NCBI RefSeq assembly: GCF_964204645.1
Contig: NC_134031.1
Location: 11,286,088-11,350,087 of the forward strand
DNA length: 64,000 nucleotides
Reading direction: 5' to 3'
Origin: Tubulanus polymorphus
Lineage: Eukaryota; Animalia; Nemertea
Positions within the stretch are counted from its first letter, which is position 1. Every line of letters starts with the position of its first letter. The position numbers and the translations under genes were made by a program. The notes under the pieces are model-generated. The model had not been told where the DNA came from, did no database searches, and saw only the letters and a program-made list of their open reading frames with translations. Shown here in pieces: positions 10,247 to 46,668 of this stretch.

Positions 10247-10457
<211 letters not shown>

Positions 10458-10465
10458 CCCTTTGA

Positions 10466-13740: not shown

Positions 13741-14102
13741 TGATATAGGGTTCCGTAGTGAAATTCCTAGCTCAGAGAATTGACAAGAAATGTGGTTGTT
13801 AGTTAATTCAGTTTATTGAGCCGACCGAGCTGTTGCGAGAGCTAGAACAAGAGAGTCTAGAACAAGAGAGAGAACTGGAGAATGAGTCCACGACAAGCGT
13901 ATTTATACTCTCAGATGGCCACGTCAATTGAACAATGACCATCTGGATTACTTGATGATCACGAAGGCCACGTTGGCAAAACAATGACCATCTGGATTAA
14001 TCACGAAGGCCATTTTTTACTAATGTAGAGTTTCAAATATGTGCTCAAATTTCCGGAGCATATGTTTCACTGTAAGCTATCTAGCTCATCTTCTATATAT
14101 CA
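13741..14102 (-). repeat. 3' LTR of Gypsy B (362 bp), with PPT at 14103-14117
   Basis: Direct repeat of 37656-38029 with about 5 substitutions and 2 indels. Minus-strand GGAAGGAGGGGCAAC immediately precedes TGATAT. Confidence 0.95.
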
Positions 14103-14497
14103 GTTGCCCCTCCTTCCGGTGACTCGACCTCGTGGCATAAAAAATATTATAATTCTATATGACAAATACGGCACGATTGATTAACGGCAAGTCAACACAA
14201 AACTAAGATAGTAGCATACTCATCGAACAAATACTGATAGTTAATGTTGAAGGTTGCTAGAGCCTGCGAGGAATCGAACCTCACCGCTGTAAGACTTATC
14301 GTCCCAACGGTTGCCAGATCCAGGGACATAGCCAAACAAAATATACAGGTTGCCGAAAGATGCATAACACTACATTTAAAACCTATTTCCGTTGTGTGCC
14401 ACCAATCGCTGCCATAAAAATTCATTGTAAGTAAAATGAAACTTCGTAAAATTAATACATTACTACTTACTTCAACTCTGAATACAACCTGGGCTCA

Positions 14498-14860
14498 TAA
14501 AAAATGAAAAATATGAAAATAATAACAATTTCTATTTGAATTAGTAGCGAAACTCATATAAAATGAAAAATAATTCTCGCACACTCGAATTTATTTTTCA
14601 TTTTTTTTCATTTTTTACTCACTAGCCCTTTCAACCTTTGATATGAAACAAGATATTCCCTATTACTCTTAAAATATTCATATATATGAATAAAATATAA
14701 ATGAATAACTTCTAAAATCAATTTTAATAAAAAATTTAGTATTAAAATGGAAGCAAATAAGTACTACTGTCCAACATGTAATATCAATATAGATAAATCC
14801 CAAAAAGCAAGACACAATAAAACTAAAACACATTTAGAGAATAAATTGAAACTAGAATAT
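14498..14860. repeat. Left TIR (363 bp; lacks the outer 12 bp and a 49-bp internal piece relative to the right TIR)
   Basis: Reverse complement of 31172-31583; includes the first 38 codons of pPolB. Confidence 0.92.
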
Positions 14861-17800
14861 GAAGATGATATATTAGAAACTAAATTAGATGAATTAAAGA
14901 ATGAAAAAGAAACATACAAATGTGATACATGTAATCTATCATTCAGTGATAAAAGATATTATAAAGAACATTTAAAATCTAAAAGTCATATTAGAAATAA
15001 GAATTATGATATTTTAGGTGAAGATTATTTTGATGAAGATAATGATAAGAAACAGAAGACAATTAAAAGCATAACAAATAAATTAAACAATAAAAGACCA
15101 TACATGGAAGATGTAAGAAAATATATTAATTTATTGGATAATAAAAAAGATATAGAGATAACCGAAGCATTTAAAAGTGATATTGGCCCAGCAGCTATCG
15201 AGTTTAAATTTCATAAAGGAAAAACATTAGAAGAAAATAAAAAACATTTAGAAAATATGAAAGAAATAATAAAAATAATTACTGATGTTGAATATCCTAA
15301 AATAAGTATATCAGTTAAAGTAAAGTTTATAAAATCTGAAGATAAACCAATATATAATATAAATTCTCATTTACAACATATTATATATAAACAACATATA
15401 GATGATAAATTAGATAAATGTTATAATGAAGTAAAAACTAAAATAGAAGAGAAATATTTTGAAGGTTCTGGTTTAATATTTGATGAAATAATATTTATGA
15501 CTTTACATGTTTATAACACAAAATATAATAAGTTAACTAAATCAAAACCAATTGATGAAAATAATGTATCATATTATAAAGAACCAGATATTGAAGCATC
15601 GAGTTATATTAAACTACCATTTAAAACTAATGCTGTAATAAATGTACAAAATGAAGATGATAAATGTTTTCTATGGGCTATAATAAGTTGCTTACATCCA
15701 ACAGAAGATATTACACATAGTTTTAGATTAACTCATTATAAACAATTTGAAAATAATTATAAGATAGATAAGTATCCTGTTAGAATTAAAAATATTCCAA
15801 AAATAGAAAGAGATAATAATATAAAGATAAATGTATTCGATTTAATCAAATTACCAAAAACAAAAGGTAATAATATTAAACATTATACATTAGAACCTTT
15901 ATACCTATCAAAAGATTATGATTCAAACGATGTTATAGATATACTATATTATGAGAATCATTACATGTGGATTAAAAGAATTGATTTATTTTTTAAATCA
16001 GAAAATGATTTTGATAATAAAATATATCTTTGTAGAAAATGTTTACATAGATTCAGTAATGAAAGTACATTATTAAATCATAAACAATTATGTGAAAATC
16101 ATGATTATTGTAAATTAGGTTTACCAAATGAAAAGGATAAAATATTAGAATTCAAAAAATATGATTACAAAAATAAAGTACCATTTGTAATATATGGAGA
16201 TTTTGAATCATTAAATAAAGAATTAACTGATCAAGATAGAAAAGAAATATATTATAAAAGAAAGAAATTAAATTCTAATGAAAATGATTTTTCAGATGAA
16301 CCACCAAAAACAAATACTATTAAAAAGATTCATCAATCAGCTGCTGCTTTCGGGTTACATATAAAATCTGATTATCCAGAACTAATCAAAAGTGAATATT
16401 ATGATTATAGAAATGAAAATGTTATCAATCATTTTTGTGACTTATCAATTGAATATGAAATAAGATTTAGTAAATTATTGAATACAAATATAGAAATTAT
16501 AATGACAGAAGAAGATAAAGAAGAATTTGCGTTTGCAGATAAATGTTATTATTGTGAAAAGATATTTAATTATAAAGATAAAAAAGTAAGAGACCATGAT
16601 CATTTGAACGGAAAGTTTAGAGGCGCTGCGCATGAGAATTGCAATTTGCAAGCTAAGAAAATTAATTTTGTACCAGTTATATTTCATAATCTATCAGGAT
16701 ATGATGCACATTTATTCATCAAACAGTTATGCCATAAAATAGAAGAAATTAATAATGAAATAGATAGATTAAATTCAAATAGATCAAAAGATAAAATACC
16801 AACTCATAAATTTAGAATGTTAGCTAAAACATCTGAGAATTATATATCATTCCAATTTGGGTGTTTAAGATTTATAGATTCATATAGATTTTTAAATAGT
16901 TCATTAGATAACTTATCAAAATCATTAGTTGATGATGAATTAAAAATATTAAAACAACACTATCCAAATAATGATGATTTTAAATTAATGAGATATAAAG
17001 GAGCAATTCCATATTATTTCTATAAAAATCATAATGATTTTAACATAACTGAATTATTGAAAGAACAATTCTATGATGAATTAAAAAATGAATATGTTAA
17101 AGATGAAGTCTATAACAGAACATTGAATATTTGGAATCATTTTAAAATAACAAATCATGGGCAATTAATAGATATATATTTAAAATCAGATGTATTATTA
17201 TTAACCGATATATTCGAAAGGTTTAGAGATGTTAACCTAAAATATTTTAATATTGATCCATGTCATTGTTATTCATCACCAGGATTAACATGGGATTGTG
17301 GTTTAAAATTTACAGATATAAAAATGGATTTGTTAACAAATATAGATCAATTACTATTATTTGAAAAATCTATAAGAGGAGGAGTTTCAGGTGTATTAGG
17401 TGATAGATATTTCAATGTAAATGATAACCCTGGATATAAGTTATTATATATAGATGCAAATAGTTTGTATGGTTGGGCAATGATGGAACCACAACCTTAT
17501 GGAGTATTTGAATTAACTGAAGTTTTACAGAATGAAAATAATGATAAATTTGATTGGAAGAAAAGAATTCTAGATATTGCAGATGATTCAGGTACTGGTT
17601 ACTTCTTTGTTGTAGATTTAGAATATCCTGAAGATAAAAAATTTAAATCTAGAAATCTAGCTTACTGCCCCGAACATAAAACTGTAACTCATGAAGAATT
17701 ATCAAATTACCAAAAAAGAATTAAACCCGAAAATCTTATTCATACAGAAAAGTTAATGGTAACTCAAGAAGATAAATATAATTATGTAGTACATTATAGA

Positions 17801-18787
17801 ATGTTAAAGTTTTATCTAAAACAAGGAATGGTTCTAAAAAAAGTACATAGATATATTTCATTTAGTCAATCTAAGTGGTTAGAAAAATATATAGATTTTA
17901 ACACCAAACAGAGAACTGAAGCTAAAACTGATTTCGAAAAAGATTTCTTCAAGTTAATGAACAATGCATTCTATGGTAAGACTTGTGAAAATATTAGAAA
18001 TAGAAATGATATTGAGTTAGTTAGTAATGGTAAAAGAATTAGACATTTACAATCATATCCTAAGTTCATTGGTAACAGAATATTTGATGAAAATTTAGCC
18101 GCAGTTAAAATGAGAAGAACATCAATGAAATTTAATAAACCAGTCTATGTTGGCGCTTCAGTTTTAGAAATATCAAAATTACTAATGTATGAATTTTATT
18201 ATAACATATTACAACCACTTTTTGGAGAAAAACATATAGAAATCTTATATTTTGATACCGATTCTTACATATTAAAGATAAAAACTGATAACATAACAGA
18301 TGATTTAAAAACATTAAAACATCATTTCGATTTTAGTAACTATCCTAAAGATCATGAACTGTTTAGCAATGATAATAAAAAAGTTCCAGGGAAGTTTAAG
18401 GATGAATTAGGTGGTGAAGAAATGATAGAGTTCATAGGTATTAGATCTAAAATGTATTCATATAAAACTAAAGAACATGAAGCTAAAAAGTTAAAAGGAA
18501 TAACCAAAAGTGTAGTAGAAAAGAATATTCATTTCAAAGATTACATCAATTGTATATTCAATGAAGAAGTTAGAAAACATAAGATGAGATGTTTAAGATC
18601 TGAAGATCATGAAATGTTTATTGAAGAAATTGAAAAGATAAGTCTAAACCCATTTGATGATAAAAGATATATTTTAGATGATGGAATTCATACAGTTGCT
18701 TATGGTTGTAATTTAGATGAATACTTAAAATTTAAAAGAGAAGAAACAAAAGAGAACGAGATAATGAAAAGAATTCTAACTTGTTAA
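14747..18787 (+). CDS. polB: Protein-primed family B DNA polymerase (pPolB), 1346 aa, with N-terminal C2H2 fingers and an endonuclease-VII-like insert
   Basis: ExoI VIYGDFES, ExoII FHNLSGYD, ExoIII YLKSDV; pol motifs YIDANSLYG, KLMNNAFYGK, YFDTDS, KKLKGI. CYYC..VRDHDH..GKFRGAAHENCN insert. Intact ORF. Confidence 0.97.
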   Translation: MEANKYYCPTCNINIDKSQKARHNKTKTHLENKLKLEYEDDILETKLDELKNEKETYKCDTCNLSFSDKRYYKEHLKSKSHIRNKNYDILGEDYFDEDNDKKQKTIKSITNKLNNKRPYMEDVRKYINLLDNKKDIEITEAFKSDIGPAAIEFKFHKGKTLEENKKHLENMKEIIKIITDVEYPKISISVKVKFIKSEDKPIYNINSHLQHIIYKQHIDDKLDKCYNEVKTKIEEKYFEGSGLIFDEIIFMTLHVYNTKYNKLTKSKPIDENNVSYYKEPDIEASSYIKLPFKTNAVINVQNEDDKCFLWAIISCLHPTEDITHSFRLTHYKQFENNYKIDKYPVRIKNIPKIERDNNIKINVFDLIKLPKTKGNNIKHYTLEPLYLSKDYDSNDVIDILYYENHYMWIKRIDLFFKSENDFDNKIYLCRKCLHRFSNESTLLNHKQLCENHDYCKLGLPNEKDKILEFKKYDYKNKVPFVIYGDFESLNKELTDQDRKEIYYKRKKLNSNENDFSDEPPKTNTIKKIHQSAAAFGLHIKSDYPELIKSEYYDYRNENVINHFCDLSIEYEIRFSKLLNTNIEIIMTEEDKEEFAFADKCYYCEKIFNYKDKKVRDHDHLNGKFRGAAHENCNLQAKKINFVPVIFHNLSGYDAHLFIKQLCHKIEEINNEIDRLNSNRSKDKIPTHKFRMLAKTSENYISFQFGCLRFIDSYRFLNSSLDNLSKSLVDDELKILKQHYPNNDDFKLMRYKGAIPYYFYKNHNDFNITELLKEQFYDELKNEYVKDEVYNRTLNIWNHFKITNHGQLIDIYLKSDVLLLTDIFERFRDVNLKYFNIDPCHCYSSPGLTWDCGLKFTDIKMDLLTNIDQLLLFEKSIRGGVSGVLGDRYFNVNDNPGYKLLYIDANSLYGWAMMEPQPYGVFELTEVLQNENNDKFDWKKRILDIADDSGTGYFFVVDLEYPEDKKFKSRNLAYCPEHKTVTHEELSNYQKRIKPENLIHTEKLMVTQEDKYNYVVHYRMLKFYLKQGMVLKKVHRYISFSQSKWLEKYIDFNTKQRTEAKTDFEKDFFKLMNNAFYGKTCENIRNRNDIELVSNGKRIRHLQSYPKFIGNRIFDENLAAVKMRRTSMKFNKPVYVGASVLEISKLLMYEFYYNILQPLFGEKHIEILYFDTDSYILKIKTDNITDDLKTLKHHFDFSNYPKDHELFSNDNKKVPGKFKDELGGEEMIEFIGIRSKMYSYKTKEHEAKKLKGITKSVVEKNIHFKDYINCIFNEEVRKHKMRCLRSEDHEMFIEEIEKISLNPFDDKRYILDDGIHTVAYGCNLDEYLKFKREETKENEIMKRILTC

Positions 18788-18816
18788 TCAAATTTTAATA
18801 AAAATATGTATTATAA

Positions 18817-19170
18817 ATGGAGAGTAAACAAGCAAACAGTGAGAACAACAAATTATTTCTAGATAGAATAAAAGATATAACAAATGTAAAATCTGTATAT
18901 TATAAATTCAAAAAGTTAACAGAATTAATAATCCATAAGAAATATCTAATTACAAATATTGATACAGTTACTAACAAATATGGAGATAAATTAGTTATAC
19001 ACTTAGAATATGAAGGATTAAAAGGAAATACATATAAATTCAGAACATATTTACCAGATAGATTTCATAGATTATCAAGTGAAGATCTAGAAGAATTATG
19101 TTCTGGAGATTTCAATTTCGTATACAAAGGTAAGAATGAAAAAGGGCACCATGAAATAGATTTCGAATAA
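18817..19170 (+). CDS. Small viral protein, possibly an OB-fold ssDNA-binding protein
   Basis: Intact 117-aa ORF right after pPolB with a beta-rich FKKLTEL..KKYLI..TNKYG..YLPDRF pattern; the function is inferred. Confidence 0.55.
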   Translation: MESKQANSENNKLFLDRIKDITNVKSVYYKFKKLTELIIHKKYLITNIDTVTNKYGDKLVIHLEYEGLKGNTYKFRTYLPDRFHRLSSEDLEELCSGDFNFVYKGKNEKGHHEIDFE

Positions 19171-19187
19171 GAAAATATGTAAAATAA

Positions 19188-19942
19188 ATGGTAGAATTAA
19201 AAGAATACAGAATATTTGTTGATTCTAGAAGGCTTACAAATTATAAATCTCATAATTTACTAGTACAATTAGATAGAGAATTCAAGAATTGTGTTGATTT
19301 AAAATTAGTTAATATAAGTTTATGTAATTCTTTTTATAATATATCAGATAAAACTTTTGAACATAGAGGGTTTATGATTTATATGAGAAATAAAGATAAA
19401 TGGTTTCATATATTTTTAAAACCAGGATTATATAATTTAGAATCATTAGCGCAGGAAATTAATGGAAGAGCTCGGTTGAAAATCAGGGGCACTTCTGTAT
19501 TTGAAATTAAATTTAATAAAATTGATAGTACTAATAAAATTAGAATAAAGATATCTAATGAACAACATAAATTTATGGTAAACAAACCACTGGCTAAAAT
19601 GTTAGGAATTAAACCGCTTACAGTTACTGGAAACGCAGAAGGCAGCTCAAATATAATACCTTTTACACACTTTTATATTTATTGCAATTTAATCGAGCCT
19701 ACAAAAACTTTCGAAGCAACTAAAGAAACAATTTGTAGTTCTAGTATACTAAATATTTTACCGCTAAAAATGTTAAACAATTTGGAACTCAAATAAATTA
19801 TAATTTAACAGAATGTGATTTTAAACCTTGCATTCCTAAATTTAATAATTTTAAATTAGAAATAAGAAATCATAATGGATACTTAATTGATTTAAATAAC
19901 TTTCCTGTGATATATGAATTAGTTATAAGATGTAGAGAGTAA
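19188..19942 (+). pseudogene. Minor capsid protein (penton), frameshift in the A-run near 19768
   Basis: IFVDSR, NSFYNIS, PGLYN..LAQEIN, YIYCNLI. The second frame gives ...KLEIRNHNGYLIDLNNFPVIYELVI, a typical penton C-terminus. Confidence 0.8.
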
Positions 19943-19958
19943 TTTTTTTGATATATAA

Positions 19959-20315
19959 ATGAATATAACTGTTGGACCGAGTATATGTTTTGGGTTTGAT
20001 TTTAAACATGAGAAAGAAATGGAATTTAACATTAATGATGTAATTACACATATTAAAAATATTGCATTTTCTAATGAAACAACATCTGAGTATGAAACAA
20101 CAATAGATAAAAAAACTTTAAATGTAGAAAAGATTACTAATTTAATTAGAGAATCTTCAAGATTTTATGAATTAGATGAAGATTTTATCATCGATGATAT
20201 TAAAAAAATAATAATTGAAATATATACAAATGAAACTAGTAATGAAATAAATGTTGAAATAATTATAAATAAGATAACTAAATATTTTGATGATAGTAAT
20301 TTTTTTGATAAATAA
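19959..20315 (+). CDS. Viral hypothetical protein (118 aa)
   Basis: TAAATG start; tightly packed in the gene block. Confidence 0.6.
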   Translation: MNITVGPSICFGFDFKHEKEMEFNINDVITHIKNIAFSNETTSEYETTIDKKTLNVEKITNLIRESSRFYELDEDFIIDDIKKIIIEIYTNETSNEINVEIIINKITKYFDDSNFFDK

Positions 20316-20537
20316 ATGAGTGATAATAAGTGGATAATAACTGGATTATATAATGGCGCATTACTATCAGTTGGAACTGTTGGTTATTCAATGGTATTAA
20401 AAAAAGTATTCAAAATGGGAAGTGTTAATGTTGATAGATTTGATATAAATGATATTTTAAAATTAACATTAGCAGTTACTTTATCTAATTTAACTATTGA
20501 TTATTTGGAAAAACAAAAATATATTCCTCCCATATAA
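20316..20537 (+). CDS. Small hydrophobic viral protein (73 aa), putative membrane protein
   Basis: Two hydrophobic segments (GLYNGALLSVGTVGYSMVL; ILKLTLAVTLSNLTI); TAA-ATG coupled start. Confidence 0.7.
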   Translation: MSDNKWIITGLYNGALLSVGTVGYSMVLKKVFKMGSVNVDRFDINDILKLTLAVTLSNLTIDYLEKQKYIPPI

Positions 20538-20561
20538 ATGCATAATTTTTTTGCTAAATAA

Positions 20562-20852
20562 ATGGCTTCTGCAATTATAACTATTATAGGATCGGCAATT
20601 GTTAACGCTTTAGCATTTACAGGTGGTGGTTATTTATTTAAGCATATTAATAAAAATAGTTCATTAGGAGAACAAAGAAGACATAACTTAGCGTTAGAGA
20701 AATACAATAAAGCAGCAGAAGAATATAGAGAAAAAAGACAAAACTATATGGATTATATTAACAAGGAATTATATGATCAGACGATTTCACATTGAGATTT
20801 TCAATCAGTTGATGATGCAATGAGTTTATATAACGCGGTAACCAAAATAATG
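20562..20852 (+). pseudogene. Viral protein with N-terminal hydrophobic helix and coiled coil (premature TGA at 20793-20795)
   Basis: MASAIITIIGSAIVNALAFTGGGYLF...EQRRHNLALEKY; the frame reads on past the stop (DFQSVDDAMSLYN). Confidence 0.65.
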
Positions 20853-20874
20853 AATTAGAGTGCGCTTTACCAGG

Positions 20875-21844
20875 ATCTAGATATTTTAAAGAATTAGATA
20901 ATAATATTAATTTATCAAAGTTTTATAAAATTTGTAATGAATTTAATATAGATATAAATAATTCTGATTTTAGAACAAAAATTGGAACAATAAGATCACT
21001 TCCTTGCCCTAAAAAGATTGCAGAATATTGTGCACTTCCCATACCATCTAATAGTTTTTATAATATCTATAATAATAAATTAGGTTATGTTAAAATAGAA
21101 ACAAAGGATTTAGAAACATTAAATTTCAATAAATTACCGAAATTTTATGATCATTTAAAACAAAAAAACAATAATGGTTGGGTTTATTTCATTTTAGAAA
21201 ATAGTGAAGGTTTTACTAAATCAGGTATAGAAAGAATAAATCAATCTATTAGAACTTATTTGATATGTATTCTAGGTGCACAAGTTGAAACAAGATCCCC
21301 AATAATTGGAAATTTAAATACATCATTCGATACACAGAAACAATTCAAAGTATTATTTGAAGATTCAATTCATAATGATAAAAATAGATCGATTCCAGAA
21401 AACATTGTAAGATATCAAAATTATTTAGATAAATCACATGTAAGACTAAATTATTGTATAGGCCCTAATCTATTAATTATTTCTAATGATTTAGTACTCA
21501 AGATGGGAAACATAATTGGTTATAATAATCTAATTAAAACTGCAACAATAAATAATTCATTTGGATTAAATGATATAAATAAAAAGATTATCACTGCTCC
21601 AAAATTAATGGAAGGTGAAAAAAATAAAAAACACATTCAATCAACTGAAACTAAAACTAATAATATTAAATTAAATAATGATTCTAAAATAAAAGATTAC
21701 AATACATCAGAAAATATAAAAACTGATACTATTCAACATGAAATAATTAAAACTAATGATGATAATAAATCCCATGAAAATACTAAATTAGCTATAACTT
21801 GTATAGGAATTGTAATCGGAGGAATATTATATTTTAAATTTTAA
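20875..21844 (+). pseudogene. Viral protein with C-terminal TM anchor (start apparently deleted)
   Basis: The frame is open well upstream of 21260 (...SEGFTKSGIERINQSIRTYLICILGAQ...) and ends LAITCIGIVIGGILYFKF. Confidence 0.65.
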
Positions 21845-21861
21845 TTTTTTTTATTATGTAA

Positions 21862-23547
21862 ATGGCAGAAGGTGGGGAAGATATTCCATTGGATCCTTTT
21901 GGTGACACCCCCGGTATAAGTGATGAACCACTTCCTGATTTTAGTGAAACAAGTTTTAATGATGGTAATGAGCCAGGATATAATAATAATTTAAATATAC
22001 CCGATTATGATGATGATGGTGTTGATTATGATTATGAAACGCGTAAAGAATATAAAGAATATATGACAGCTACCGAAAGGTTAGTTATTAGAACCGCAAC
22101 ATCTAGAAAGGATTTAATGAAAAGATTAGTAAATACAACTGATCCTCTTATGAAATATCAATTAAAATCAATGAAAAATAGAGTAATATATACAATTGTC
22201 AACGTATTATTACCAAAAGATGTAATAGATGAAATTGGTTCAGAAGGTGTTGTAGAACAAATTTTAAAAGATGACCCATTTTTCATGAATAATTTAGAAT
22301 TTAAAAATGATGCATGGTATTATAATGTTGAATTAAATAACAAAAATGTATCAATTCAATTATCTAGAATGGCTCAAGAAAATATTTTTGAACCTGGAAT
22401 GCGAGCAAGATCTACAATTGAAGGTTCAAAAGGCGGTAGAGAATTTCTCAGAATTATATGGAATGCAATCGATAGAATAAATAAAGAAAAACCAATTCCT
22501 AAAATTGATATTAACAAATATTCACCATTTAAAAATCCAAATTTAAATCCTACTGATGTTGATCCAGAAATGGAAGAATATGGAGATCGATCAGATAGAT
22601 TAAGATCTTCAACACCAGAAACATCGAGAAGAGACACTCAACCAATTGATAATGATTCAAGTCAATGAATTAACATTAGAAAAACAAATTGATAGATTAA
22701 GAGATTCAGAAGAAGAGATAAATAGTATTTTAGATACGCCCGGTACTGAAACTGGAATAAATCGAATACAATCTTTACTAGAAAAAGGACTTCTTAAATT
22801 AACTGATGAAGAATTAGAAGCATTTCCTGAACAAACACGTAGAGAAATTAAAGGTATACAAGAATCAGCCGATGTAAATGCTAATATTAATATGAGATTT
22901 TCTAAAATAACCATGTTAGAAAAAGAATTAGCTATTGCAAATGAAAAATTAGAACAATTAGAATTAAATAGAGATGAACCTGATTATGAAAGCAGAAAGT
23001 TAGCTTTGGAAAAAGAAATAGATGATTTAAAATATAACATAAAATTACAAAAAGAAGAAAGAGACATATTATTGAAATCATATGATCTTAATCATATTAA
23101 AAAATTAAAAGTTATTTTTATAGATTTAATAATAAAATCAGATTCTAAACTATCATTGAAAGATAGAATAAGATTATTATTTAAGTTAGAAGGAATAACA
23201 ATTCTTTCAATTCTAACAGCTGTATCTATGTTATTTACAACAATTGGTTTAGCTATATCAAATTCATTAAAATCTACACCTACTCCTAAAAACCAGATAA
23301 ACCCCCAGATAATAATTCAATACAAGATAAAGTTAAAGATGGTTTAAAGAAATTAGCAAAATATTTATGGGAACTATCAAAAAAATCTGCTGCAGCATTG
23401 CCAGGAGTTATTGCATCAATTGTTGGTTTTATATTGAAATCTGCAGGAAACATTATTAACTTTGCTGCTGAACATATTATTTTATTTTTAATTACAGTTG
23501 TAAGTGCAATTATTTTTGGGCTAGTAAACATGATTAAAAATAAATAA
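21862..23547 (+). pseudogene. Large viral protein (~560 aa): acidic N-terminus, coiled coil, multi-helix hydrophobic C-terminus; two frameshifts (~22660, ~23290)
   Basis: Three overlapping frames join. C-terminus: GITILSILTAVSMLFTTIGLAI...AAALPGVIASIVGFILKSAG..HIILFLITVVSAIIFGLV. Confidence 0.7.
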
Positions 23548-23567
23548 TTAATTTTTTTGTTAAATAA

Positions 23568-24797
23568 ATGAGTGGGAGTTATATCAATCATTCTAAGAAT
23601 CATAGAATATATAATGCTATTAAAGCAGAAAGATCACATCATATAATTACTCATAACCCTTCTAATATTAATCCCGATGAAACTTTATATGTTAGAATTC
23701 CTCGATTAACACAAAATACTTTTTATGTTCCAAATAGTATTTATTTATCTGCCGATATAAAAGTAATCGGTAATAATAATAATTATGTTGTTGATAATGT
23801 TGGAAGAAATTTGATTAAAAAATTAACTATAAAGATTGGTCCAGAAACAGTTTTCTCATTAGATGATTATAATTTATTTATGCATTATAAAGATTTATGG
23901 TTAACTAAAGAAAATAGAAATAATATGATATTTCAAGGAATCCAATCAGAAAACCAAAATAAATAAAGATCAGAAGCTAATAGCGCAATATTAACTAATG
24001 CTGTAGATAAATTGATAAAAAGTATATATGGAAGCAAATATAAAATTCCATTAGACTTTGAATTGATAAATAACAATGCGCCTTTATATAAATATGCAAT
24101 TCAAGAAGACGTTATATTCGAAATAACATTTGCTCCTGAAAATGAAATAATAAAGATATGAGTTATAAATTATCGAATATATGTTTAGAATATGATACAG
24201 TAACTGATGAAAATATTTCAAGTATAATTCAAACTAAATACAATCAAGGATTTTCATTATTATATGATTATATTGATAAATTTAAAACTGTAACTATTAA
24301 TGCAAATGATGAAATTATTAATGAGAATATTAACTTCCCAAGAAGATCTATTAAAGGTATATTAATATTTTTTACCATTGCAACATATACTAATGGCGCA
24401 ATAAATGTTGATAATTATTATAATCCTGAAATAACAAAAGTAGAAATAACTATCGAAGGAATAGCAAATAAAATATTTTGTCAAGGAATGAGAATGATAG
24501 ATCAATGGCCAGAAATTAGAAAACATTTTATGAATGAAAAAGTAAAATCATCTGAAAATTGTAATATTAATCAAATTGATTATTATACCGGTAATAAATA
24601 TGCATTATGGTTAGATTTTAGAACAACAGAGGATAATTCATTACATGGTTCTGGAAAAAAATTACAAAACACTAAAGATGGAATACAATTATTCATGACA
24701 AAGAATAAAGGAATCAAAAATTTTAAAATGCACATTTATATTATATCTGACGCACAATTAAATTGTAAATTCACAATTAGATAGTGTTATGTATTAA
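23568..24797 (+). pseudogene. Major capsid protein (double jelly-roll type, inferred), with a nonsense codon at 23964 and frameshifts near 24150 and 24762
   Basis: ~400 beta-rich codons: ITHNPSNINPDETLYVRIP, VVDNVGRNLIKKL, YKIPLDF, YKLSNICLEYD, YALWLDFR. Size and context fit a Polinton-type MCP. Confidence 0.75.
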
Positions 24798-24829
24798 AAT
24801 TTTAACTTTATTAAAAATTTATATAATAA

Positions 24830-25689
24830 ATGGAAGGAGGAAAAGTATATAAACATATTCCATACATCGATACACATGAAAATAATGATGGTTTATATTA
24901 TGTAATACCTTGTAATATAGCTTTGATATTTGATCCTATTTTCAAAATTTATAATTGATAATAATAGTAATTGATAATAATGTAATACCTTCTACATCTA
25001 ATAATGTAATACCTTCTACATCTAATAATGTAATACCTACTACATCTAATAATGTAATACCTACTACATCTAATAATGTAATACCTACTACATCTAATAA
25101 TGTAATACCTTCTACATATAATAATGCAATAATATTAAATGTTAGTAAAAATAGAAATTATTGTGATTATTGTAAAGGTGAATTTTCAAACGCTCCATCA
25201 AATTGGAATAAACATATGAATACAAATTCATATATTACTAATGTTATAGAACGTGTTGGTTTAAAAGAATTTATAGAACACCCATTTAGATATGTTACAA
25301 AATTTGTTTCAAATAAAAAAGTAAATGGTAAACAATTATATGAAGATTTTTTATTAGCAACACCTGATAAAAATGAATTATATTTAACTGATGCTAATGA
25401 AATATTAGGATCAAACACTGTAAATGAAATATTAGGAGCAAACACTAATAATGATTCTATGAAACATAAAGTAGAAAATAATGATAAATTTGATTGGATG
25501 AATAAGAATAACAATGAAACAACTATTGATGATTCGGTAAAAAAGGTGAAAAATAAGTATAAAAATAATAAAGAATTTGAAGAAGAAAATTCGGTAGAGA
25601 ATTTGAAAAAATTGATGGGGTATGATAGTGAATTGGAGAGTGATGATGAAAGTGATTCAGAAAGTAATTATCTAACACTCAAAAAGTAA
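24830..25689 (+). pseudogene. Viral protein with NNVIP(S/T)TS repeats, a degenerate zinc finger and an acidic tail (frameshift near 24950)
   Basis: TAAATG start at 24830; YCDYC...WNKH motif. Confidence 0.55.
24975..25131. repeat. 24-bp coding tandem repeat, 6 copies plus a partial one
   Basis: TAATAATGTAATACCT(T/A)CTACATC. Confidence 0.95.
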
Positions 25690-25843
25690 TAAAGGTTGAA
25701 AATTGTATAAAATAATAGTAAATAAAAAAGGGGGTTTTAAGTATTTAAGGTATCTAATAGGGTATCAGGTATTAGGGTATCTAATAGGGTATCTAATACA
25801 TAGGTAACTAATAGGGGTATCTAATACATAGATATATAAATAG

Positions 25844-26455
25844 TTATTTTATACATTTATATTCATAGGGAAATTGTAATCTCAGTAATAATTTTGAACC
25901 TTTATTATTCTTTAATTTATTCATATATTCATCATGTAATTCAGTAGGTATAATTTGATTTTCTTCCAATGATTGTTGCATAGATTTTTTATCTTTGTTA
26001 TAAAATAAAACTAGAAATCGTATATTCTCCCTAAAGTCTTTAACAATTGAATAATATTTTTGATTTAAAACCCATGTTGTTATCCCAAAATGTCTCCCAG
26101 AGAAAGCTAGATAACATAATTCACTTTCTCTAACTTTTGAATCATGTAAATTTGCGCAATCATCTATAATGAATAATGTATTTGATCCTTTATAAATATC
26201 AATTGCTATTTTTATACAATTATCTAAATTTTCTTTTACTGTTTTAGGATCTAATATGATAAACTTTTTCATCTTAACTATATCTCTATTATATGTTTCA
26301 TTCATTTCATAAGTAGGACAAAAGAATATTATGTTATCAAAATGATTCTTATAAATAGTTTCTAACAAATCTAATATGAAATGTGTTTTACCACAATTGG
26401 TTACTCCAGTAACTAACATATTATGCGGTTCAAATATAAATAAATCTTTATTCAT
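25844..26455 (-). CDS. A32/FtsK-like genome packaging ATPase
   Basis: Walker A LVTGVTNCGKT, Walker B FIIDD, FSGRHFGI and Q..R.N motifs; intact. Confidence 0.92.
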   Translation of the reverse strand: MNKDLFIFEPHNMLVTGVTNCGKTHFILDLLETIYKNHFDNIIFFCPTYEMNETYNRDIVKMKKFIILDPKTVKENLDNCIKIAIDIYKGSNTLFIIDDCANLHDSKVRESELCYLAFSGRHFGITTWVLNQKYYSIVKDFRENIRFLVLFYNKDKKSMQQSLEENQIIPTELHDEYMNKLKNNKGSKLLLRLQFPYEYKCIK

Positions 26456-27530
26456 TTATTCTTTTAATTTTACTAGATAAAATCCATTCATTAAATTTAT
26501 CATCGTATCCTTTATATTTCACCAAAGAATACTTTTTTCCTTTAAGAGTTTTTGTTTTCAATACTTTTTCTATTTTGTATTCTATTTCATCTGGGTTTGG
26601 TACAAGTGATAATTCTTGTTCATAGAAATAACCTAATATTTCTTCATCTTTTATATCTTCTAATTTATAAACAAAAGGTTTAGTTAATATTATCCTTTTA
26701 ATCTTAAATATTTCTTCTGTAAAATTTGGGGTATAACCTTTATAAAAGGTTTTTCTATATTTAGATATTCTTACGTGTTGTCCAATTTTGGATCTAGGTT
26801 CTCCGAAATCATGTGTAACAAATGCGCCATATAAATTATTCCAAACTATTTCTGAATTATCTTCTTTTTTAGCTTGTATAGGTTTCATATTTATAGAACT
26901 ATGTTTAGAATTATTATAACCTTTCACCAAATCATCTAACACATCGATATATTTATATGTTTCATTAGCAGTAAAATATTTCCACATTCTAGTTTTCAAT
27001 GTTTTATTAAATCTTTCTATAATAGATGCTTTTTTATCTGAATGTGTTGAAAAATAATCTACATCGTTATCAGATAATAGTTTTTTGAAATGTTTGTTAT
27101 AAAATTCCTTACCTTCATCAAATTGTATCTTATCTGGAATAGCTTCTTTAAATATTGATTTAAAAGCATTTGTCACTTCTATTCCAGTTTTATTTTTGAT
27201 TGGAATTGGCCATGCGTATCTACTGAATATGTCTATAACATTCAGTATCCAGAAATATCCTTTGTTGTATTCTTCTAAGTTCTTCATGTCAATTAAATCT
27301 GCTTGCCATTGTTGTTCGATATACGAAACCATAACTTTTCTTGTTAAATAAGTTTTATCCATTTTCTTATGAATTTGATAAGTTGGTTGATTTTGTAACC
27401 ATGATTTCAATTCACTATATTTTATATTACCATTATCAGATTTAATTTAATTCCATAATTCTGAAACGCTAGAATATGATACTTCACTTTCTGGGTTATA
27501 ATATAAATCTCTTAAATATTGTTCTTTAGT
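26448..27530 (-). CDS. int: Retroviral-like (rve, DDE) integrase with C-terminal chromodomain; N-terminus disrupted upstream of ~27445
   Basis: WQADLID, QFDEGKEF, IERFNKTLK; chromo-like YKIEKVL..LVKYKGYDDKFNEWI. The upstream YYNP..YSSV fragment is out of frame. Confidence 0.92.
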
Positions 27531-27879
27531 TTATTTAGTTTCAATGACTTTATGATTTGACTTATTTTCTGGTATGAAAGGTTTATTATTATTGGAATCA
27601 TCTTTATCATCAGATTTGAATTTTGATTTATATATTACACCGGATAATATAATAACTGTTACTAATCCAATTGTAATATATAATTTATAATTACTTCCAG
27701 CATTAGAAGAATTAGATGGATTATTATTTGAATCAATATCAGATAAAGTCTGTGATTCATTTATATCAGTTAATTTCTTTTTCTTAGCTTTTTTTTAATT
27801 CTGAAGATCTTTTACCTGATTCTCTTGCCCATTTAATTTGTTTCTCGGATCTAGCCTTTTTCTTAACTCCATCACTCAT
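27531..27879 (-). pseudogene. Small basic viral protein with one TM helix (+1 frameshift in the homopolymer run near 27790)
   Basis: 8 T here versus 7 T in the open copy at 1-303. Confidence 0.65.
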
Positions 27880-28480
27880 TTATTTTAGTTAATTTTTGTT
27901 CTGATTCATTTTCTGTTTCGACGTTTGGTTGTAGTTCATCTGTTTCGTTCTTACCTGATTTATATTCCATAGGTTTGATGTTCGAAAATGTTATGACGCC
28001 AGTAGAAATTAATGTCATAACCGATCCTAATTGAAATGAAGCATAACCAACCCATTTTTGTAATTCAGTCATAACTAAGTAGTCATTTTTCAAATCACTA
28101 TATAATTTATTTTCATCATCAATTGGTATTAACTGGTTACATAACTTAGAATAACATTTGACAATACCATCAAAAATAGAATCATTTATTCGGGCCAATC
28201 TTGACTCTTCATAAATCTTAAAATATTTTATTACTTTATCTGGTTTCATAGAGTCAAATTCTTGAAAAGTTATTATTTTCCCGATAAACTGATTACATTT
28301 ACCACTAGCAATTAATAATTCTAGATGGTGCTTACAATATAAATAGTATTCATAATCAATATTACAATTAACTTGAATATTATTTTCAATTTTGGTTGGA
28401 ATATCCTTATTATCACTAATGCCCAAATCATCTAATGTTTTTTCAATATCAATACTATTCTTATTAGATTTCTTTGACAT
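27872..28480 (-). CDS. Viral hypothetical protein (202 aa)
   Basis: Intact, TAAATG start, conserved in the second copy. Confidence 0.75.
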   Translation of the reverse strand: MSKKSNKNSIDIEKTLDDLGISDNKDIPTKIENNIQVNCNIDYEYYLYCKHHLELLIASGKCNQFIGKIITFQEFDSMKPDKVIKYFKIYEESRLARINDSIFDGIVKCYSKLCNQLIPIDDENKLYSDLKNDYLVMTELQKWVGYASFQLGSVMTLISTGVITFSNIKPMEYKSGKNETDELQPNVETENESEQKLTKINE

Positions 28481-29083
28481 TTATATTAGAGAAAAAAAGC
28501 AAAAAAAATATTATAAGTATTCTTCAAATGATACTAGTATCTCTTTAGGTTAATACTAAATTGACTAGGTTAGTTAAAGTTAAAGAATTTCTATTCAAAA
28601 CTATTCAAAATCTATTCAATCTAATGTCAATTAGAATTACCAAACGAAAATATTAAAAATATAATAGAATTCACTAGCTAGTTGAAGTTATTGTTTTTTT
28701 TTAATATATTTTTTTTAAATTAGGATTTAGATTATCACCATGTGGGTGCCGTACGGCACCATCTCACTACCATTGTTTATCTATAGGAGCAGTAACTATA
28801 ACTGTCCAGATAAGTCATTTCGGATTCTCGATAATAAATCCTAAAACTGAAAATAAATTCAAAGAAACGACTGGTGGAAATATTATTTCATAAACACATA
28901 TATTTATTATGTAAATTTTAGCGATCGATAATAGAACAATGGAGAACAATAGAAAAGCGGTCCAATCTGACCGGTTATTGCGCAATACTTAGTTAACAGT
29001 AAACAATACAATATTAAAACAGATATATACAATCGAGATTACATTTTTGATATCTATGTTACAAAGACCTTCAGTGTTATAAT

Positions 29084-29808
29084 CTATAATTTTGTCCAGA
29101 ATTCTTTAATTACTGGATTGTTTCCAATCATTTCTTCAATTTCTGGTAAATATCTGACTACTTCACTAAATGCTAATCCTAATATTTTGAATTTTTCATA
29201 TTTTATTAATCTACCTACTCTTCTCAGTTTTCTTTCAAAACCAGCACTGATATCTATGTTCTTTTTAACCCACAGCCCCCAAGAAATCCCCGCAGTTTCT
29301 TTATCAAACATTGTAAACCCTATATTTAGATAACCCCCGAAAATGATGTGGTCCCATAGGTGATTTGCTTTTCTATTTAATATGGTTTTATAACTTTTTT
29401 TTAAGATATCAGTAATTTCAGCAAATGAATTAACTTCTACACTTTGTATTTCCGGAAAGTTTAAATGTTCTGTGTCAATGATTAATTTAGATTTTACTCG
29501 TTCAACTCTTCTCCACTCATTTTCTTAGTTTTCGATTCTTTGAGTCCCAACAGCAATTTAAGTCGCGTTGCTGGTAATTTTGGTAATTGTAGTTCGCGCG
29601 GTTATTGTTTATTATGTATTACATCGCTCAGAATTTTCACCATTTCTTGATGATAGTTCAAATGTTCTTGTAATGTTTGTGATGTTTGTTCGTCAATTAC
29701 GAGAGTTTCATCCTCCATTTCTATTGATTCCTGAGTTTCACTATCTATCGTTTCTGGTTCCTCATCCGTTTGTTGGCTTGGAATTTCTGGTTGATCTCTG
29801 TATTCCAT
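29084..29808 (-). pseudogene. Viral hypothetical protein (~240 aa) broken by a stop at 29602 and a frameshift near 29522
   Basis: ORFs 29602-29808 and 29084-29311 can be joined through KQ*PRELQ...KTKK / EWRRVERV...DHIIFGGYL. Confidence 0.55.
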
Positions 29809-30268
29809 TTTAATTTAAAAGATGTCGTGAAAATGAATTACTGTACTTAAATATGTTTAAAGGTTTCCCTACTTCATAATAACTACAAAAAACGGTACTT
29901 ACATTTAGATTTAGAACAGTAAACTGTGTTTTGAGAGAGAATATCCAATACGTACTATGTATGTGAAAGTTGATTTCTAACTGCCGACGTGGCGCACGTT
30001 CGACCAAACTAATTACTTCTGCACAGATGTTCTTTATGATGAAGTTAATTAATTCTTTAGAATTGAAATCAAGATATATTTGGCAACATATGTTTTAGTA
30101 GTAAGCAAAAGCTATGTATTATATACATACAAAGCTCAAATAGAATTGCCAGCTTTCTAACCACTGATCAAAACCTCAGAATGCGGTTGATTCTGTGAAA
30201 TACTATTCCATAATTCAACAAATGTCTTTGCTTCATCCAGTTGATCTAAATATAACTGTAAATCTAGT

Positions 30269-30823
30269 TTATTGTTTAATTATTTTTTCCTTCTTTTCTA
30301 AAGGTCTTAGATTCTTCCAATTCCAAATAAGTTTTTTATTGTATTCATCATTCATGTCAAATTTAGAAATCGGCAACACGTGATCAATATGAAAGTATTC
30401 ACCATAATTATCTATATTCATTTTATCATCGAATTGAAATATAATCCATGATTTGAGAAATTCATCTGAACAACCCAATAGATTAGATAGTGTTTCTGAA
30501 TGTGTTTCTTTGTTGAATAATTGTGTTAATCTAGATCTTAAGCATTGTTTCAATCTAAAATTAAGATCTGTTTGATATCTTACTCTCATATATTCTGTCA
30601 TATAATCATTATAAGCTTCTCTATTATCTTCTCTATATTGTTTGGTATATAGTTTAAAACAAGTTTTACAGCAATATTGAAAACCATCTTTGCTAATCTT
30701 ACGCTTACTAAATTCTGTTAAAGCTAATTTATCTAATTCACATTTAGAACACTTCTTGTAATATATATTTATAACAGCAGTGTTATTTGTAATATTGATA
30801 ATTTGTGGTTGTTCTGGTTCCAT
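30269..30823 (-). CDS. HNH/endonuclease-VII-like nuclease of the giant-virus/phage type (C-terminus possibly frameshifted)
   Basis: KKCSKC..EF..DG....CKTC zinc ribbon, RL..RSRL, LLGCS, NYG..FHIDHVLP, NWKNLRPL. Confidence 0.8.
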   Translation of the reverse strand: MEPEQPQIINITNNTAVINIYYKKCSKCELDKLALTEFSKRKISKDGFQYCCKTCFKLYTKQYREDNREAYNDYMTEYMRVRYQTDLNFRLKQCLRSRLTQLFNKETHSETLSNLLGCSDEFLKSWIIFQFDDKMNIDNYGEYFHIDHVLPISKFDMNDEYNKKLIWNWKNLRPLEKKEKIIKQ

Positions 30824-31057
30824 TTATTATACGTATTTTTTACTAAATTGGTTAATATTTTAGAATCCTCTTCTATTTCTTCAACCAACGTCATCCTTTT
30901 TCATTCCTCGCTGCTTTTGATAAGTCGTTTCGATTCCTTGATATCTAAATAATACCACTGGGCAAAACCGCGCGTTCGTGCACAGTTTTGCTCAATGCGC
31001 ATGCGCTAATCATAATTATATATAATTATGTAAATAGAAACAACCGACATGAAATAT

Positions 31058-31285
31058 CTAAATCATATCCTTGATATCAAATTCCTCAACGTATTGTTCA
31101 TTATTTGGATCATTATTCCATAATTCAATAAATTTCTTTGCCTTTGTTAACTGTTCTGAATATAACTGTAAATATTCTAGTTTCAATTCATTCTCTAAAT
31201 GTGTTTTAGTTTTATTGTGTCTTGCTTTTTGGGATTTATCTATATTGATATTACATGTTGGGCAGTAGTACTTATTTGCTTCCAT
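31058..31285 (-). CDS. Small C2H2 zinc-finger protein sharing its first 38 aa with pPolB
   Basis: Starts in the right TIR; 37 of 38 residues identical to the pPolB N-terminus; unique tail conserved in the second copy. Confidence 0.75.
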   Translation of the reverse strand: MEANKYYCPTCNINIDKSQKARHNKTKTHLENELKLEYLQLYSEQLTKAKKFIELWNNDPNNEQYVEEFDIKDMI

Positions 31286-31595
31286 TTTAATACTAAAATT
31301 TTTATTAAAATTGATTTTAGAAGTTATTCATTTATATTTTGTTCATATATATGAATATTTTTAGAGTAATAGGGAATATCTTGTTTCATATCAAAGGTTG
31401 AAAGGGCTAGTGAGTAAAAAATGAAAAATATGAAAATAATAATAATTTCTATTTGAATTAGGAGTGAAACTCATATAAAATGAAAAATAAATTCGAGTGT
31501 GCGAGAATTATTTTTCATTTTATATGAGTTTCGCTACTAATTCAAATAGAAATTGTTATTATTTTCATATTTTTCATTTTTTACTCACTAGCCCT
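31172..31595. repeat. Right TIR (424 bp) ending in a 193-bp palindrome (31403-31595)
   Basis: AGGGCTAGTGAGT...ACTCACTAGCCCT fold-back with 3 mismatches and 1 bulge; loop GAGTGTGCGA. Confidence 0.95.
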
Positions 31596-31982: not shown

Positions 31983-33311
31983 TCAAGTGTATTCGGGCGC
32001 CATCCTGATCGGTGCGCGACGTCTCGGCTCTTGTAGTTGATTAAGTATCGACGGATTAAGGCTAGTTATCCCTCCGAACCGTAACCAAATTCGAGTAAGA
32101 CGAACGCGGCTAGGGTGGTTCTTATAATCGTTGCAAGATATTACTTCTTTACGTAACCATGATAAATGGAAATGAAATTGTTTGGAATTAAATTCCGTGT
32201 AAAAATCACCAGAATGGGAGACACCGATATAGTCCGGAAGGTTTTTTATCAAGGTGCAATTGTGAGAGGACACATTGACTGGCACGGGCATTGCAGAAAC
32301 GGAATAGACGTTAAAAATAGTGCTGGTTTCTGATATTGGAAATTTTACGTAGATGTATATCGCCTTGTCAGTCCTCGTATAGAGAACGTTTCGAACTTGA
32401 TAGTAATGTCCTGGATTTGAATATGAAATTGTGAATCCAGGATAATGTGTAGAAAGGAGATCTCGGATCGTACCGATCGTTTTTGAAATTATATGCGATG
32501 GAACCAGATTGATCGGTAGATACCCATCAATTAGGTTTTGCACGCCGGCCAGCCATTTGTGTCCCTCCATAGAATATTGTGCAGACACCTCTAGCACCGA
32601 GGAAAAATACTGGAAGAAATCACTCATGGCCAGCAGTGAAGCTTCCATGTCCGAGATCCGTACCCTGTTTTGTCCGGCGAATTGGGAGAGTTTGATAAGG
32701 TTATCCTGGATATTATTGATGAGAGCGTGATTGTTTCGCACACCCTCAACAATGTTATCCAGGCGGGATGATGTCACATTCATAAAGGAGGACATCTCCC
32801 TACCTTGACGAATGACTTCGTTTTTAACCAATTCAGAAGCTTTTTCTAATCTGCCTATGTGGCTCCGGATCTCGCTCACTTCGCTTTCAGTGGCTGTACC
32901 AAACATAACTTTGACACGCTTCCAAAAAAAGTTAAAAAGTCCGCGTTTGGATCTGTGGCCAGAAGAGGTTTGGTACATCCAAGCCGGCATGAGTGATTTT
33001 ATTTCGTTCAAGGTTGTCTCAAAACTAGCCGCCGAGTTGTTTCTCTGCTTTGCTAGAGCTATTATTGCCTGCTGCAGGTACTGGCATGCCCTGTCCGGAT
33101 TAGAAGGACAGTCAGGTGTTTTAAAATGCGGCAGCGGATACCGAAGCCAGGGAATAGAATATGTGTGGCTCCATACGGAGCCAGCATTGTCAACCTGTCC
33201 CTGTTCCGTAAACAGGACTCCATAGTCCTTTCGAAGAATTACTTTCTCCGCAACCTATTCCGTGCCAGCACCCACTATCAGGGTTAAGATGAGTAGATTA
33301 ATTGTACTCAT
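31983..33311 (-). pseudogene. env: Gypsy B envelope, baculovirus-F/errantivirus-type class I fusion protein (stop at codon 19; C-terminal TM part missing)
   Basis: Signal peptide MSTINLLILTLIVGAG, furin site RSKR followed by fusion-peptide-like GLFNFF..VMFGTAT, heptad repeat, GYLPINLVP. Confidence 0.85.
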
Positions 33312-36206: not shown

Positions 36207-36223
36207 TGTATGACGGGCCGAAT

Positions 36224-37655: not shown

Positions 37656-38029
37656 TGATATAGGATTCCGTAGTGAAATTCCTAGCTCAGAGAATTGACA
37701 AGAAATGTGGTTGTTAGTTAATTCAGTTTATTGAGCCGACCGAGCTGTTGTGAGAGCTAGAACAAGAGTCTAGAACAAGAGAGTCTAGAACAAGAGAGTG
37801 AACTGGAGAATGAGTCCACGACAAGCGTATTTATACTCTCAGATGGCCACGTCAATTGAACAATGACCATCTGGATTACTTGATGATCACGAAGGCCACG
37901 TTGGCAAAACAATGACCATCTGGATTAATCACGAAGGCCATATTTACTAATGTAGAGTTTCAAATATGTGCTCAAATTTCCGGTGCATATGTTTCACTGT
38001 AAGCTATCTAGCTCATCTTCTATATATCA
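37656..38029 (-). repeat. 5' LTR of Gypsy B (374 bp)
   Basis: Direct repeat of 13741-14102 with one extra CTAGAACAAGAGT unit. Confidence 0.95.
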
Positions 38030-38126
38030 GATGGTTCTAGTAGGATGCGGACCATCAGTAGGTGTACCTCCACTAGAATCACATGCCGGGCCAGCAACCA
38101 CATATCCATCTTGAGGTGTCGTTTGC

Positions 38127-46285: not shown

Positions 46286-46668
46286 TAATTCAATAAACTC
46301 TTTATTGTACTGCTTACACCCTTTCGGGTCGAGATCCACAGAGTGATATTTACAAATAGTATTTACAAAACATAAACATTTTACATTAATATAACAAGAA
46401 TAAAAGCAGTTTCGTGTTAATTATTATCAGAGTCTAGGATTTCAAAGCCTTTAGAGATGTATTCCCCAATAGAACCATGTAGTTTCTTATCTGTGAGAAG
46501 TTTTTTGAATTTGGTCTGGTCCTCCCAATTTGGGGCATCTGGGTATATACAGCTCACTGCTCTGTTTAGGTTATATCTTATTTCATTTAGTCGAGAGCAT
46601 TCTATTATAAAATGAAACTCATCTTCAATGGCATTACAGTGTTGGCACAGTCTATTCTCTCTTGATAT
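46286..46668 (-). mobile_element. 5'-truncated non-LTR retrotransposon (LINE) 3' end
   Basis: The minus frame reads RENRLCQHCNAIEDEFHFIIEC...DSDNN* (LINE ORF2 C-terminal zinc motif), then a short 3' UTR with AATAAA. Confidence 0.75.

Follow-up and report, generated by a model that had tools for sequence, protein, structure and literature searches.

The element and its genes

The window analysed here is a 64,000-nucleotide stretch of the genome of the nemertean Tubulanus polymorphus (NC_134031.1, positions 11,286,088 to 11,350,087 of the forward strand), and its positions 14497-31583 are an integrated, decayed copy of a 17-kb Maverick/Polinton (Polintoviricetes) in which nearly all genes begin with the word TAAATG. 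The element is bounded by terminal inverted repeats (TIRs) which, as in other Mavericks, are several hundred bp long, and it carries the Maverick gene set of a protein-primed B-family DNA polymerase (pPolB), an rve integrase with chromodomain, an A32 ATPase, and a major capsid protein. The pPolB carries an EndoVII-like insert, is likely of Beta type, and gives no Pfam PF03175 match at E<=0.01; the element as a whole is likely of the Beta type ('adintovirus') of Starrett and colleagues, as judged from its sequence. An adenain-like maturation protease, usual but not universal in Mavericks, has no Pfam match among the open reading frames (ORFs) of the window or of L002, the closest long relative, and gene content within group 2 is described as variable (10.64898/2026.06.19.733378). 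No target-site duplication is evident by eye at the element ends, and many reads continue beyond the left end. The features are as follows.

14497..14860, + strand: left TIR, holding the pPolB promoter, the first pPolB codons, and repeated AAAAATGAAAA words
14747..18787, + strand: pPolB, 1346 aa, frame open; A-tract and TAAAATG start
18817..19170, + strand: conserved 117-aa ORF, possibly SSB-like; A-tract and TAAATG
19188..19936, + strand: likely minor capsid protein (label inferred from a weak DUF5901 match), frame broken near the 3′ end; A-tract and TAAATG
19959..20315, + strand: 118-aa ORF; T7 and TAAATG
20316..20537, + strand: conserved 73-aa hydrophobic protein, found at 26 loci; TAAATG, with the T7 core within upstream coding sequence
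20562..20845, + strand: conserved membrane-type protein, broken and truncated (139 aa in L002); T7 and TAAATG
20849..21844, + strand: remnant of a conserved ~440-aa protein of no assigned function; 5′ part and promoter lost here
21862..23543, + strand: conserved coiled-coil/membrane protein, in pieces (485 aa in L002); T8 and TAAATG
23568..24784, + strand: major capsid protein, in pieces; T7 and TAAATG; the intact L002 relative models as a double jelly roll
24830..25689, + strand: zinc-finger-type ORF, in pieces, with a 24-nt tandem repeat; A-tract and TAAATG
25844..26455, − strand: A32-like packaging ATPase, frame open (PF04665, E=1e-10); TAAATG inside the last integrase codons
26448..27527, − strand: rve integrase with chromodomain (PF00665, E=1e-8), 5′ end broken
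27615..27879, − strand: remains of a ~130-aa basic/membrane protein; the TAAATG falls within the closing codons of the upstream gene
27872..28480, − strand: 202-aa all-helical protein, beside the ATPase in 58 loci; T-tract and TAAATG
29602..29808, − strand: 68-aa ORF of uncertain gene status in a decayed, variable region; TAAAATG
30269..30823, − strand: EndoVII/HNH-type endonuclease; A-tract and TAAATG
31172..31583, − strand: right TIR, in which the pPolB promoter and first codons recur (ORF 31285-31058)

The capsid model of L002, whose protein is 74-76% identical to that of the window, has a pLDDT of 79, and its top Foldseek matches are the PBCV-1 and iridovirus capsids (E 6e-15). Searches by tblastn with intact relatives as queries found the genes for the capsid, the ~485-aa protein, the likely minor capsid protein, and the product of the 24830 gene all in pieces, the 5′ end of the integrase broken, and a deletion that took the 3′ end of the 139-aa gene together with the 5′ start of the 440-aa gene; the broken copy could thus act only together with intact ones. 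In raw whole-genome reads of the same species, the median element bin has a depth of ~485x against ~5.7x on a PARP12/ZAP-like host ORF, and this ratio gives ~85 copies per genome at at least 90% identity. The colinear tblastn matches also support the earlier view that the genes are intronless, a point that rests on sequence and not on transcripts.

TAAATG at gene starts

A sequence-only reading of this DNA had listed twelve ATGs as part of TAAATG, and TAA does directly precede each of them (18817..30823); TAAAATG stands, as had been stated, at pPolB (14747), its TIR copy (31285), and 29808, and the genes are indeed very AT-rich, the element having a GC content of 24.7%. The word is not enriched across the window (104 occurrences against 90.3 ± 9.6 expected) or within the coding sequence of the element (15 against 13.2), and therefore only a test at start sites is meaningful. 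Because TAA is an in-frame stop, any TAAATG counts as a first ATG, and the background was accordingly drawn from short ORFs called by the same first-ATG rule, of which 38/442 have TAAATG. Against this background, TAAATG is found at 8/15 element ORFs of at least 100 aa (Fisher p=2e-5) and at 0/22 long ORFs in the rest of the window. Candidate starts at 21503, 22652, 24158, 25216, and 27362 were rejected, since tblastn with intact relatives places them within broken genes; the last is not a true start because the 5′ end of the integrase is broken. Among the plausible starts that are left, 12 of 15 have TAAATG and the other three TAAAATG, giving P(>=12 of 15)=6e-11 against the short-ORF background, or 2e-8 with all 21 candidates retained.

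AT richness combined with a Kozak preference for AAA before ATG had been named beforehand as the explanation that would overturn the proposal. The GC content of the element speaks for it, as does the rank of TAA as the commonest triplet before any ATG (55/718); it is nonetheless already refuted and retains next to no probability, since the excess persists not only against matched ORFs but also under a null already conditioned on AAATG (P=6e-4 for 12/15). Moreover, T at position −3 is a poor Kozak base, the opposite of the Kozak purine, and Kozak context therefore does not explain the motif. Stop-start coupling is rare in the element, as had been claimed: only 20316 directly abuts an upstream stop, and the starts at 26455 and 27879 sit in the last codons of upstream genes that both end Ile-Asn-Glu-stop.

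An upstream core and two classes of start

The T-run that had been remarked on upstream of several starts is placed with precision: all five sense-strand runs of at least seven T in 14.7-25.7 kb, the 11-kb left arm, stop exactly 10 nt short of an ATG (19959, 20316, 20562, 21862, and 23568), and at 28480 the run ends 12 nt before it. The signal is bipartite, consisting of a T-rich or A-rich core, a spacer of ~8 nt, and TAAATG. The T-tract class comprises the major capsid gene, the 73-, 139-, and 485-aa membrane-type genes, 19959, and 28480; the A-tract class comprises pPolB, 18817, the likely minor capsid gene, 24830, the ATPase, 27879, and the endonuclease. When 191 starts were compared with 267 non-start TAAATG words from the same loci, which are related and were preselected as motif-positive, T occupied positions −15 to −12 in 57, 85, 68, and 75% of starts versus 39, 33, 32, and 34% of controls. 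G+C is nearly excluded at −15 to −13 of starts, and the T-tract is retained even where it lies within upstream coding sequence.

Vaccinia late promoters are described as having TAAAT(G) across the start codon and a conserved T ~10 nt upstream, and intermediate promoters as having TAAA and an A-rich upstream part without the conserved T (PMC11980589; PMC5294985). From sequence comparison, it is well supported that the motif of the element reproduces the vaccinia late-promoter geometry.

The TIRs hold words of another kind. The AAAAATGAAAA words at 14500-14615, 31417-31581, and 1416-1499 fit the vaccinia early core consensus AAAANTGAAAA, and 7/8 matches to that core in the window fall in TIR copies versus 0.76 expected. 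They are copies of one repeat unit lying 130-250 nt from the pPolB ATG, and could equally be replication signals.

Conservation among relatives

A search with an ATPase alignment found 98 metagenome loci, and the analysis retained the 80 best; lineages were defined as clusters at 85% ATPase identity with at least two full-length starts, giving 43 including the window. TAAATG is present at 75% or more of starts in 28/43 lineages (126/131 full-length starts, 105 with T at −14) and at 15% or fewer in 9/43, the 6/43 intermediate lineages being represented by two to three starts each. One locus counted as motif-negative, L019, has TAAATG out of frame with the called ORF. The word persists in loci of 40-45% GC and is found at 0/3 starts in L017, a relative just as AT-rich as the element (GC 0.20), which again contradicts chance. 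It also persists in loci with an Alpha-type pPolB (L030/L033), and is therefore not bound to one polymerase type. Viral contigs, queried with the ATPase (single sequence and alignment), the capsid alignment, and pPolB, yielded a single distant locus, L001, and no other relative.

The relatives also bear on whether the word acts in translation only, whereby an in-frame stop before the ATG would close upstream frames on polycistronic or read-through transcripts and favour re-initiation. The genes are tightly packed, and 21/205 starts are directly stop-start coupled, as this explanation would have it; another 14 starts, however, lie within the upstream gene, and for the remaining 170 the start is intergenic or the contig shows no ORF upstream of it. 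Furthermore, any stop should serve, whereas among 203 starts TAG precedes the ATG once and TGA never. Translation alone also leaves unexplained the T fixed at −14, its retention in upstream coding sequence, and the lineage-wide swap to TATA described below, and it is accordingly considered very improbable.

TATA-type sister lineages and VLTF3

Eight of the nine lineages lacking TAAATG have TATA near the ATG. In lineages without TAAATG, TATA lies within 18 nt of the ATG at 42/70 starts versus 15.7 ± 2.9 after shuffling, and TATATA occurs 20 times versus 2.6; a tally of 38/45 over 10 loci was chosen after seeing the data, 42/70 being the unselected figure. At such a distance, TATA is too close to the ATG for an RNA polymerase II (Pol II) TATA box. 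A GC-rich lineage (L074-L077) has neither word (3/21). A Pox_VLTF3-like gene is encoded in L023, L024/L025, and L063, all of TATA type, and no VLTF3-like match occurs in any TAAATG locus, whether the complete window element, the 11-12 kb L002, L030, and L033, or the others; most loci are partial. The VLTF3-like genes adjoin the 139-aa gene (L063:5746-6387, L023:5082-5579, also L024 and L025). Splice donors of the form GTRAG are avoided in TATA-type coding sequence (22 versus 41.9 expected), not avoided in close TAAATG relatives (27 versus 28.6), and weakly avoided in distant ones (62 versus 77).

On quick ATPase and capsid trees the TAAATG and TATA types interleave, with at least three forced changes, and the capsid tree rejects a single TAAATG clade (AU p=2e-60; 25 rows, with L019 mislabelled as negative). 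In the sister lineages the word changes at all genes together; this, and the fact that the TAAATG loci do not form one clade, fits helper switching as proposed for endogenous mavirus-like elements (EMALEs) (PMC8547959). A TATA initiator is reported in African swine fever virus (ASFV) late genes (PMC7163114). The 'pox/asfar-like' machinery of the sequence-only reading can therefore be divided: its pox half agrees with the initiator of the window element, whereas the ASFV-late-like initiator belongs to the sister lineages instead. The promoter word and the VLTF3-like gene change as a pair, which suggests a route between helper dependence and partial self-sufficiency.

Proposed transcription by a helper

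The reading moderately favoured here is that the RNA polymerase of a pox-type helper reads the promoters of the element, A-class genes first and T-class genes after replication. By analogy, the element is likely a helper-dependent, virophage-like parasite of a co-infecting cytoplasmic pox-like virus. The bipartite signal would serve as a post-replicative promoter of poxvirus type, on which the helper's RNA polymerase with its intermediate and late factors would act in trans. Transcription would, as in vaccinia, begin at the first A of TAAA, two bases ahead of the ATG, and slippage there would add a 5′ poly(A) leader, so that the unfavourable T at −3 would be gone from the mRNA. The A-tract, intermediate-like promoters (pPolB, the ATPase, the endonuclease, the 117-aa ORF, and the likely minor capsid gene) would fire first, and the T-tract, late-like promoters (the major capsid and membrane genes) after replication. 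The TAAA is reported to be read directly by the poxviral polymerase core (PMC12917281), slippage at TAAA to yield poly(A) leaders (PMC6211774), and fish poxvirus genes carry it in their annotation too (PMC4542343). By Pfam and PHROGs, the element has no recognisable match to RNA polymerase, TBP, TFIIB, or VLTF3, although remote homologues may escape such searches.

As expected for cytoplasmic transcription, the polyadenylation-type word AATAAA is not avoided in coding sequence: it occurs 42 times versus 48 expected in the window and 144 versus 145 and 140 versus 132 in relatives, with 13 sites inside pPolB. The pox early terminator T5NT was set aside as evidence, since its sense-strand depletion (observed/expected 0.4) is accompanied by antisense depletion (0.67-0.75).

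Several points weigh against transcription by a pox-type helper. The relatives are not independent samples; the T peak at −14 is one base off the −13 implied by the wording of a vaccinia review; and the Pol II controls for AATAAA (1 versus 2.4; 0 versus 2.0) are too small to show power. In a search for the helper, the promoter pattern retrieved 36 viral loci, and pervasive use of TAAATG is seen in 0/36, the best having it at 3/7 and 4/21 starts, in a collection that may hold no poxviruses. The provirus is nuclear and poxviral transcription cytoplasmic, so that access of helper factors is unexplained, as it is for mavirus. Expression of coral polintoviruses is described for ordinary colonies, and the account consulted names no helper (PMC11131425); the VLTF3-like genes of the sister lineages mark a family able to carry its own factors.

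These last points favour the main rival, in which host Pol II reads the motif inside the nucleus, guided by a factor of Maverick origin (VLTF3-, TBP-, or TFIIB-like) that another element of the genome or an unrecognised ORF provides. It would remove the nucleus/cytoplasm problem, fits the coral expression, and has its candidate factor in the TATA-type lineages. The VLTF3-like match is, however, absent from the complete window element and every TAAATG locus, and Pfam and PHROGs give no TBP or TFIIB. The conserved 202-aa ORF encodes a protein of long helices, for which neither a fold search of its model nor a PDB profile search gave a match. In addition, it is the poxviral polymerase itself that is reported to read TAAA, and leaderless Pol II mRNAs with many internal AATAAA words would be unusual. 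Taken together, host transcription of this kind is considered unlikely.

A cytoplasmic helper other than a poxvirus, such as a Nucleocytoviricota lineage not yet described or a linear-plasmid-like element that has a polymerase of its own, might also supply a TAAAN or TAAAT initiator. The pGKL elements of yeast show that a TAAAN initiator with slippage-derived poly(A) leaders exists in such a setting (PMC6211774), but the upstream profile shows no conserved columns that correspond to their upstream element ATNTGA. The T core at −14 with the strict TAAATG is a specific match to poxvirus late promoters, and the motifs given for other nucleocytoplasmic large DNA viruses in the accounts consulted differ (TATA in ASFV, TCTA in CroV). 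Such a helper is accordingly thought improbable, although less so than an effect on translation alone.

A pox-type helper thus remains preferred. The promoter part of the sequence-only reading has gained a bipartite pox-type signal conserved in 28 lineages, whereas the helper dependence is something that we infer only. The inducible antiviral role that it also raised is speculative, and several genes of this copy are broken. The activation of animal Mavericks is an open question, and a pox-type promoter at nearly every gene makes dependence on a large virus experimentally testable; the promoter word provides a sequence barcode by which Mavericks can be sorted according to their likely helper, and it points to poxvirus-like viruses in animals where none are known. 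A broader proposal is more tentative and at present falls somewhat short of probable: that endogenous poxvirus virophages make up a widespread branch of animal Mavericks, the TAAATG lineages being pox-wired and their sisters having switched to TATA and a VLTF3-like factor of their own. If true, marine and soil invertebrates should harbour undiscovered poxviruses and animals a heritable, inducible defence against poxviruses, and the promoters would record the identity of the helper.

Other genes, copies and surroundings

The pPolB has 3371 homologues, some with PF03175; two of them (P0139 and P0177) contain intein domains, P0139 with a LAGLIDADG domain too. A PDB sequence search with pPolB and a PDB profile search with the ~440-aa family gave no match, and a homologue search with the endonuclease gave nine unnamed proteins, none tied to a named virus. 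Many relatives share a SLATT-like two-helix membrane protein that is absent from the window copy (L002:2541-2975, L029, L030, L034), and L002 has a deoxynucleoside kinase gene (10340-10981) whose start is likewise T-tract and TAAATG. Where the two gene arms converge (25690-25843), short repeats of GGGTATCTAATA-like units form a candidate terminator region.

A partial second copy of the element lies at 1-1500 of the window and keeps TAAATG at 303. The Maverick interrupts a Gypsy-like LTR retroelement with gag, protease, RT/RNaseH, and a weak env-like (Baculo_F) match; its ORFs lie at 31983-37495, and its LTRs, at 13741-14106 and 37656-38033, are 95% identical by blastn. The PARP12/ZAP-like host ORF used for read depth is an intronless 876-aa CCCH-WWE ORF at 54779-57409, an antiviral-type gene that indicates an animal host and whose position 23 kb from the element is probably a coincidence. 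Two more high-copy repeat families, at 45992-52631 and 57944-63900, have hundreds of copies by read depth. Over the element core (14328-31591), the summed contig depth of run X1 is mostly ~160-390 times the read depth of run X7, compared with 7 on the single-copy ORF and ~6-130 (mostly 10-65) on other repeats; the ratio is only 19-26 at 28936-30263, and run X2 shows no such excess. Run X9, presumed to be RNA, contributed a single short piece. The element was possibly amplified in the X1 sample, contig depth being no copy number.

Comparison with known systems

Animal Mavericks/Polintons of the Beta 'adintovirus' type (Starrett et al. 2021, PMC8502044) are described as sharing with the element TIRs, a pPolB that seems divergent from Pfam03175, an rve integrase with chromodomain, an A32/FtsK ATPase, a double-jelly-roll capsid, small membrane proteins, and many endogenous copies. 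They differ in their adenain protease, unrecognised in the window element or L002, and GasderminX/Cupiennin accessory genes are given as further Beta features. Pox-type promoters are not described in the accessible text of that paper, in which the word 'promoter' has 0 occurrences. Dependence of vertebrate Mavericks on large DNA viruses has been proposed as a hypothesis, with no molecular evidence in the sections available (PMC8097293), and the consulted parts of a 2026 polinton-like virus (PLV) framework (10.64898/2026.06.19.733378) and of PMC11161782 hold nothing on promoters. Among the papers listed by literature searches, whose coverage lacked most subscription journals, none reports TAAAT(G) starts in Mavericks. 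The breadth over 28 lineages, the measured T core at −14, the two promoter classes, and the TATA/VLTF3 counterpart are new here.

The vaccinia promoters (PMC11980589; PMC12917281; PMC5294985) are alike in the TAAAT(G) over the start codon and in a core ~10-11 nt upstream that is T-rich in one class and A-rich in the other. Unlike in vaccinia, the motif here stands at nearly all genes of a 17-kb nuclear-integrated element with no recognised RNA polymerase, capping enzyme, or transcription factor of its own. The pGKL elements are likewise AT-rich pPolB replicons with TIRs and TAAAN initiators giving 5′ poly(A) leaders, but differ in a polymerase of their own, encoded by a helper plasmid, in the upstream element ATNTGA, and in the absence of capsid and integrase (PMC6211774).

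PLVs in the occlusion bodies of entomopoxviruses (Barth et al. 2024, PMC11296320) provide a precedent, being Maverick-related, tied to invertebrate poxviruses, and proposed as hyperparasites. They differ in their size of ~12 kb, a cysteine protease, and a link by co-purification, with no rve integrase reported, and the main text of that paper is without promoter or motif analysis. Identity with the true virophages (Lavidaviridae) was considered and rejected, as the element has no recognised protease, a capsid only 9-11% identical to those of mavirus and Sputnik in structural alignment, and a Maverick-type gene set.

The sharing of a promoter word between an endogenous or satellite virus and a large DNA virus is established in protists for mavirus/EMALEs (PMC8547959) and for the PLV Gezel-14T (10.1101/2022.07.28.501842), and in these systems, as here, different element types bear different words. 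They have Mimiviridae-type helpers (TCTA late, AAAATTGA early) on which dependence was shown experimentally, whereas the window element combines an animal host and a pox-type word with a putative helper.

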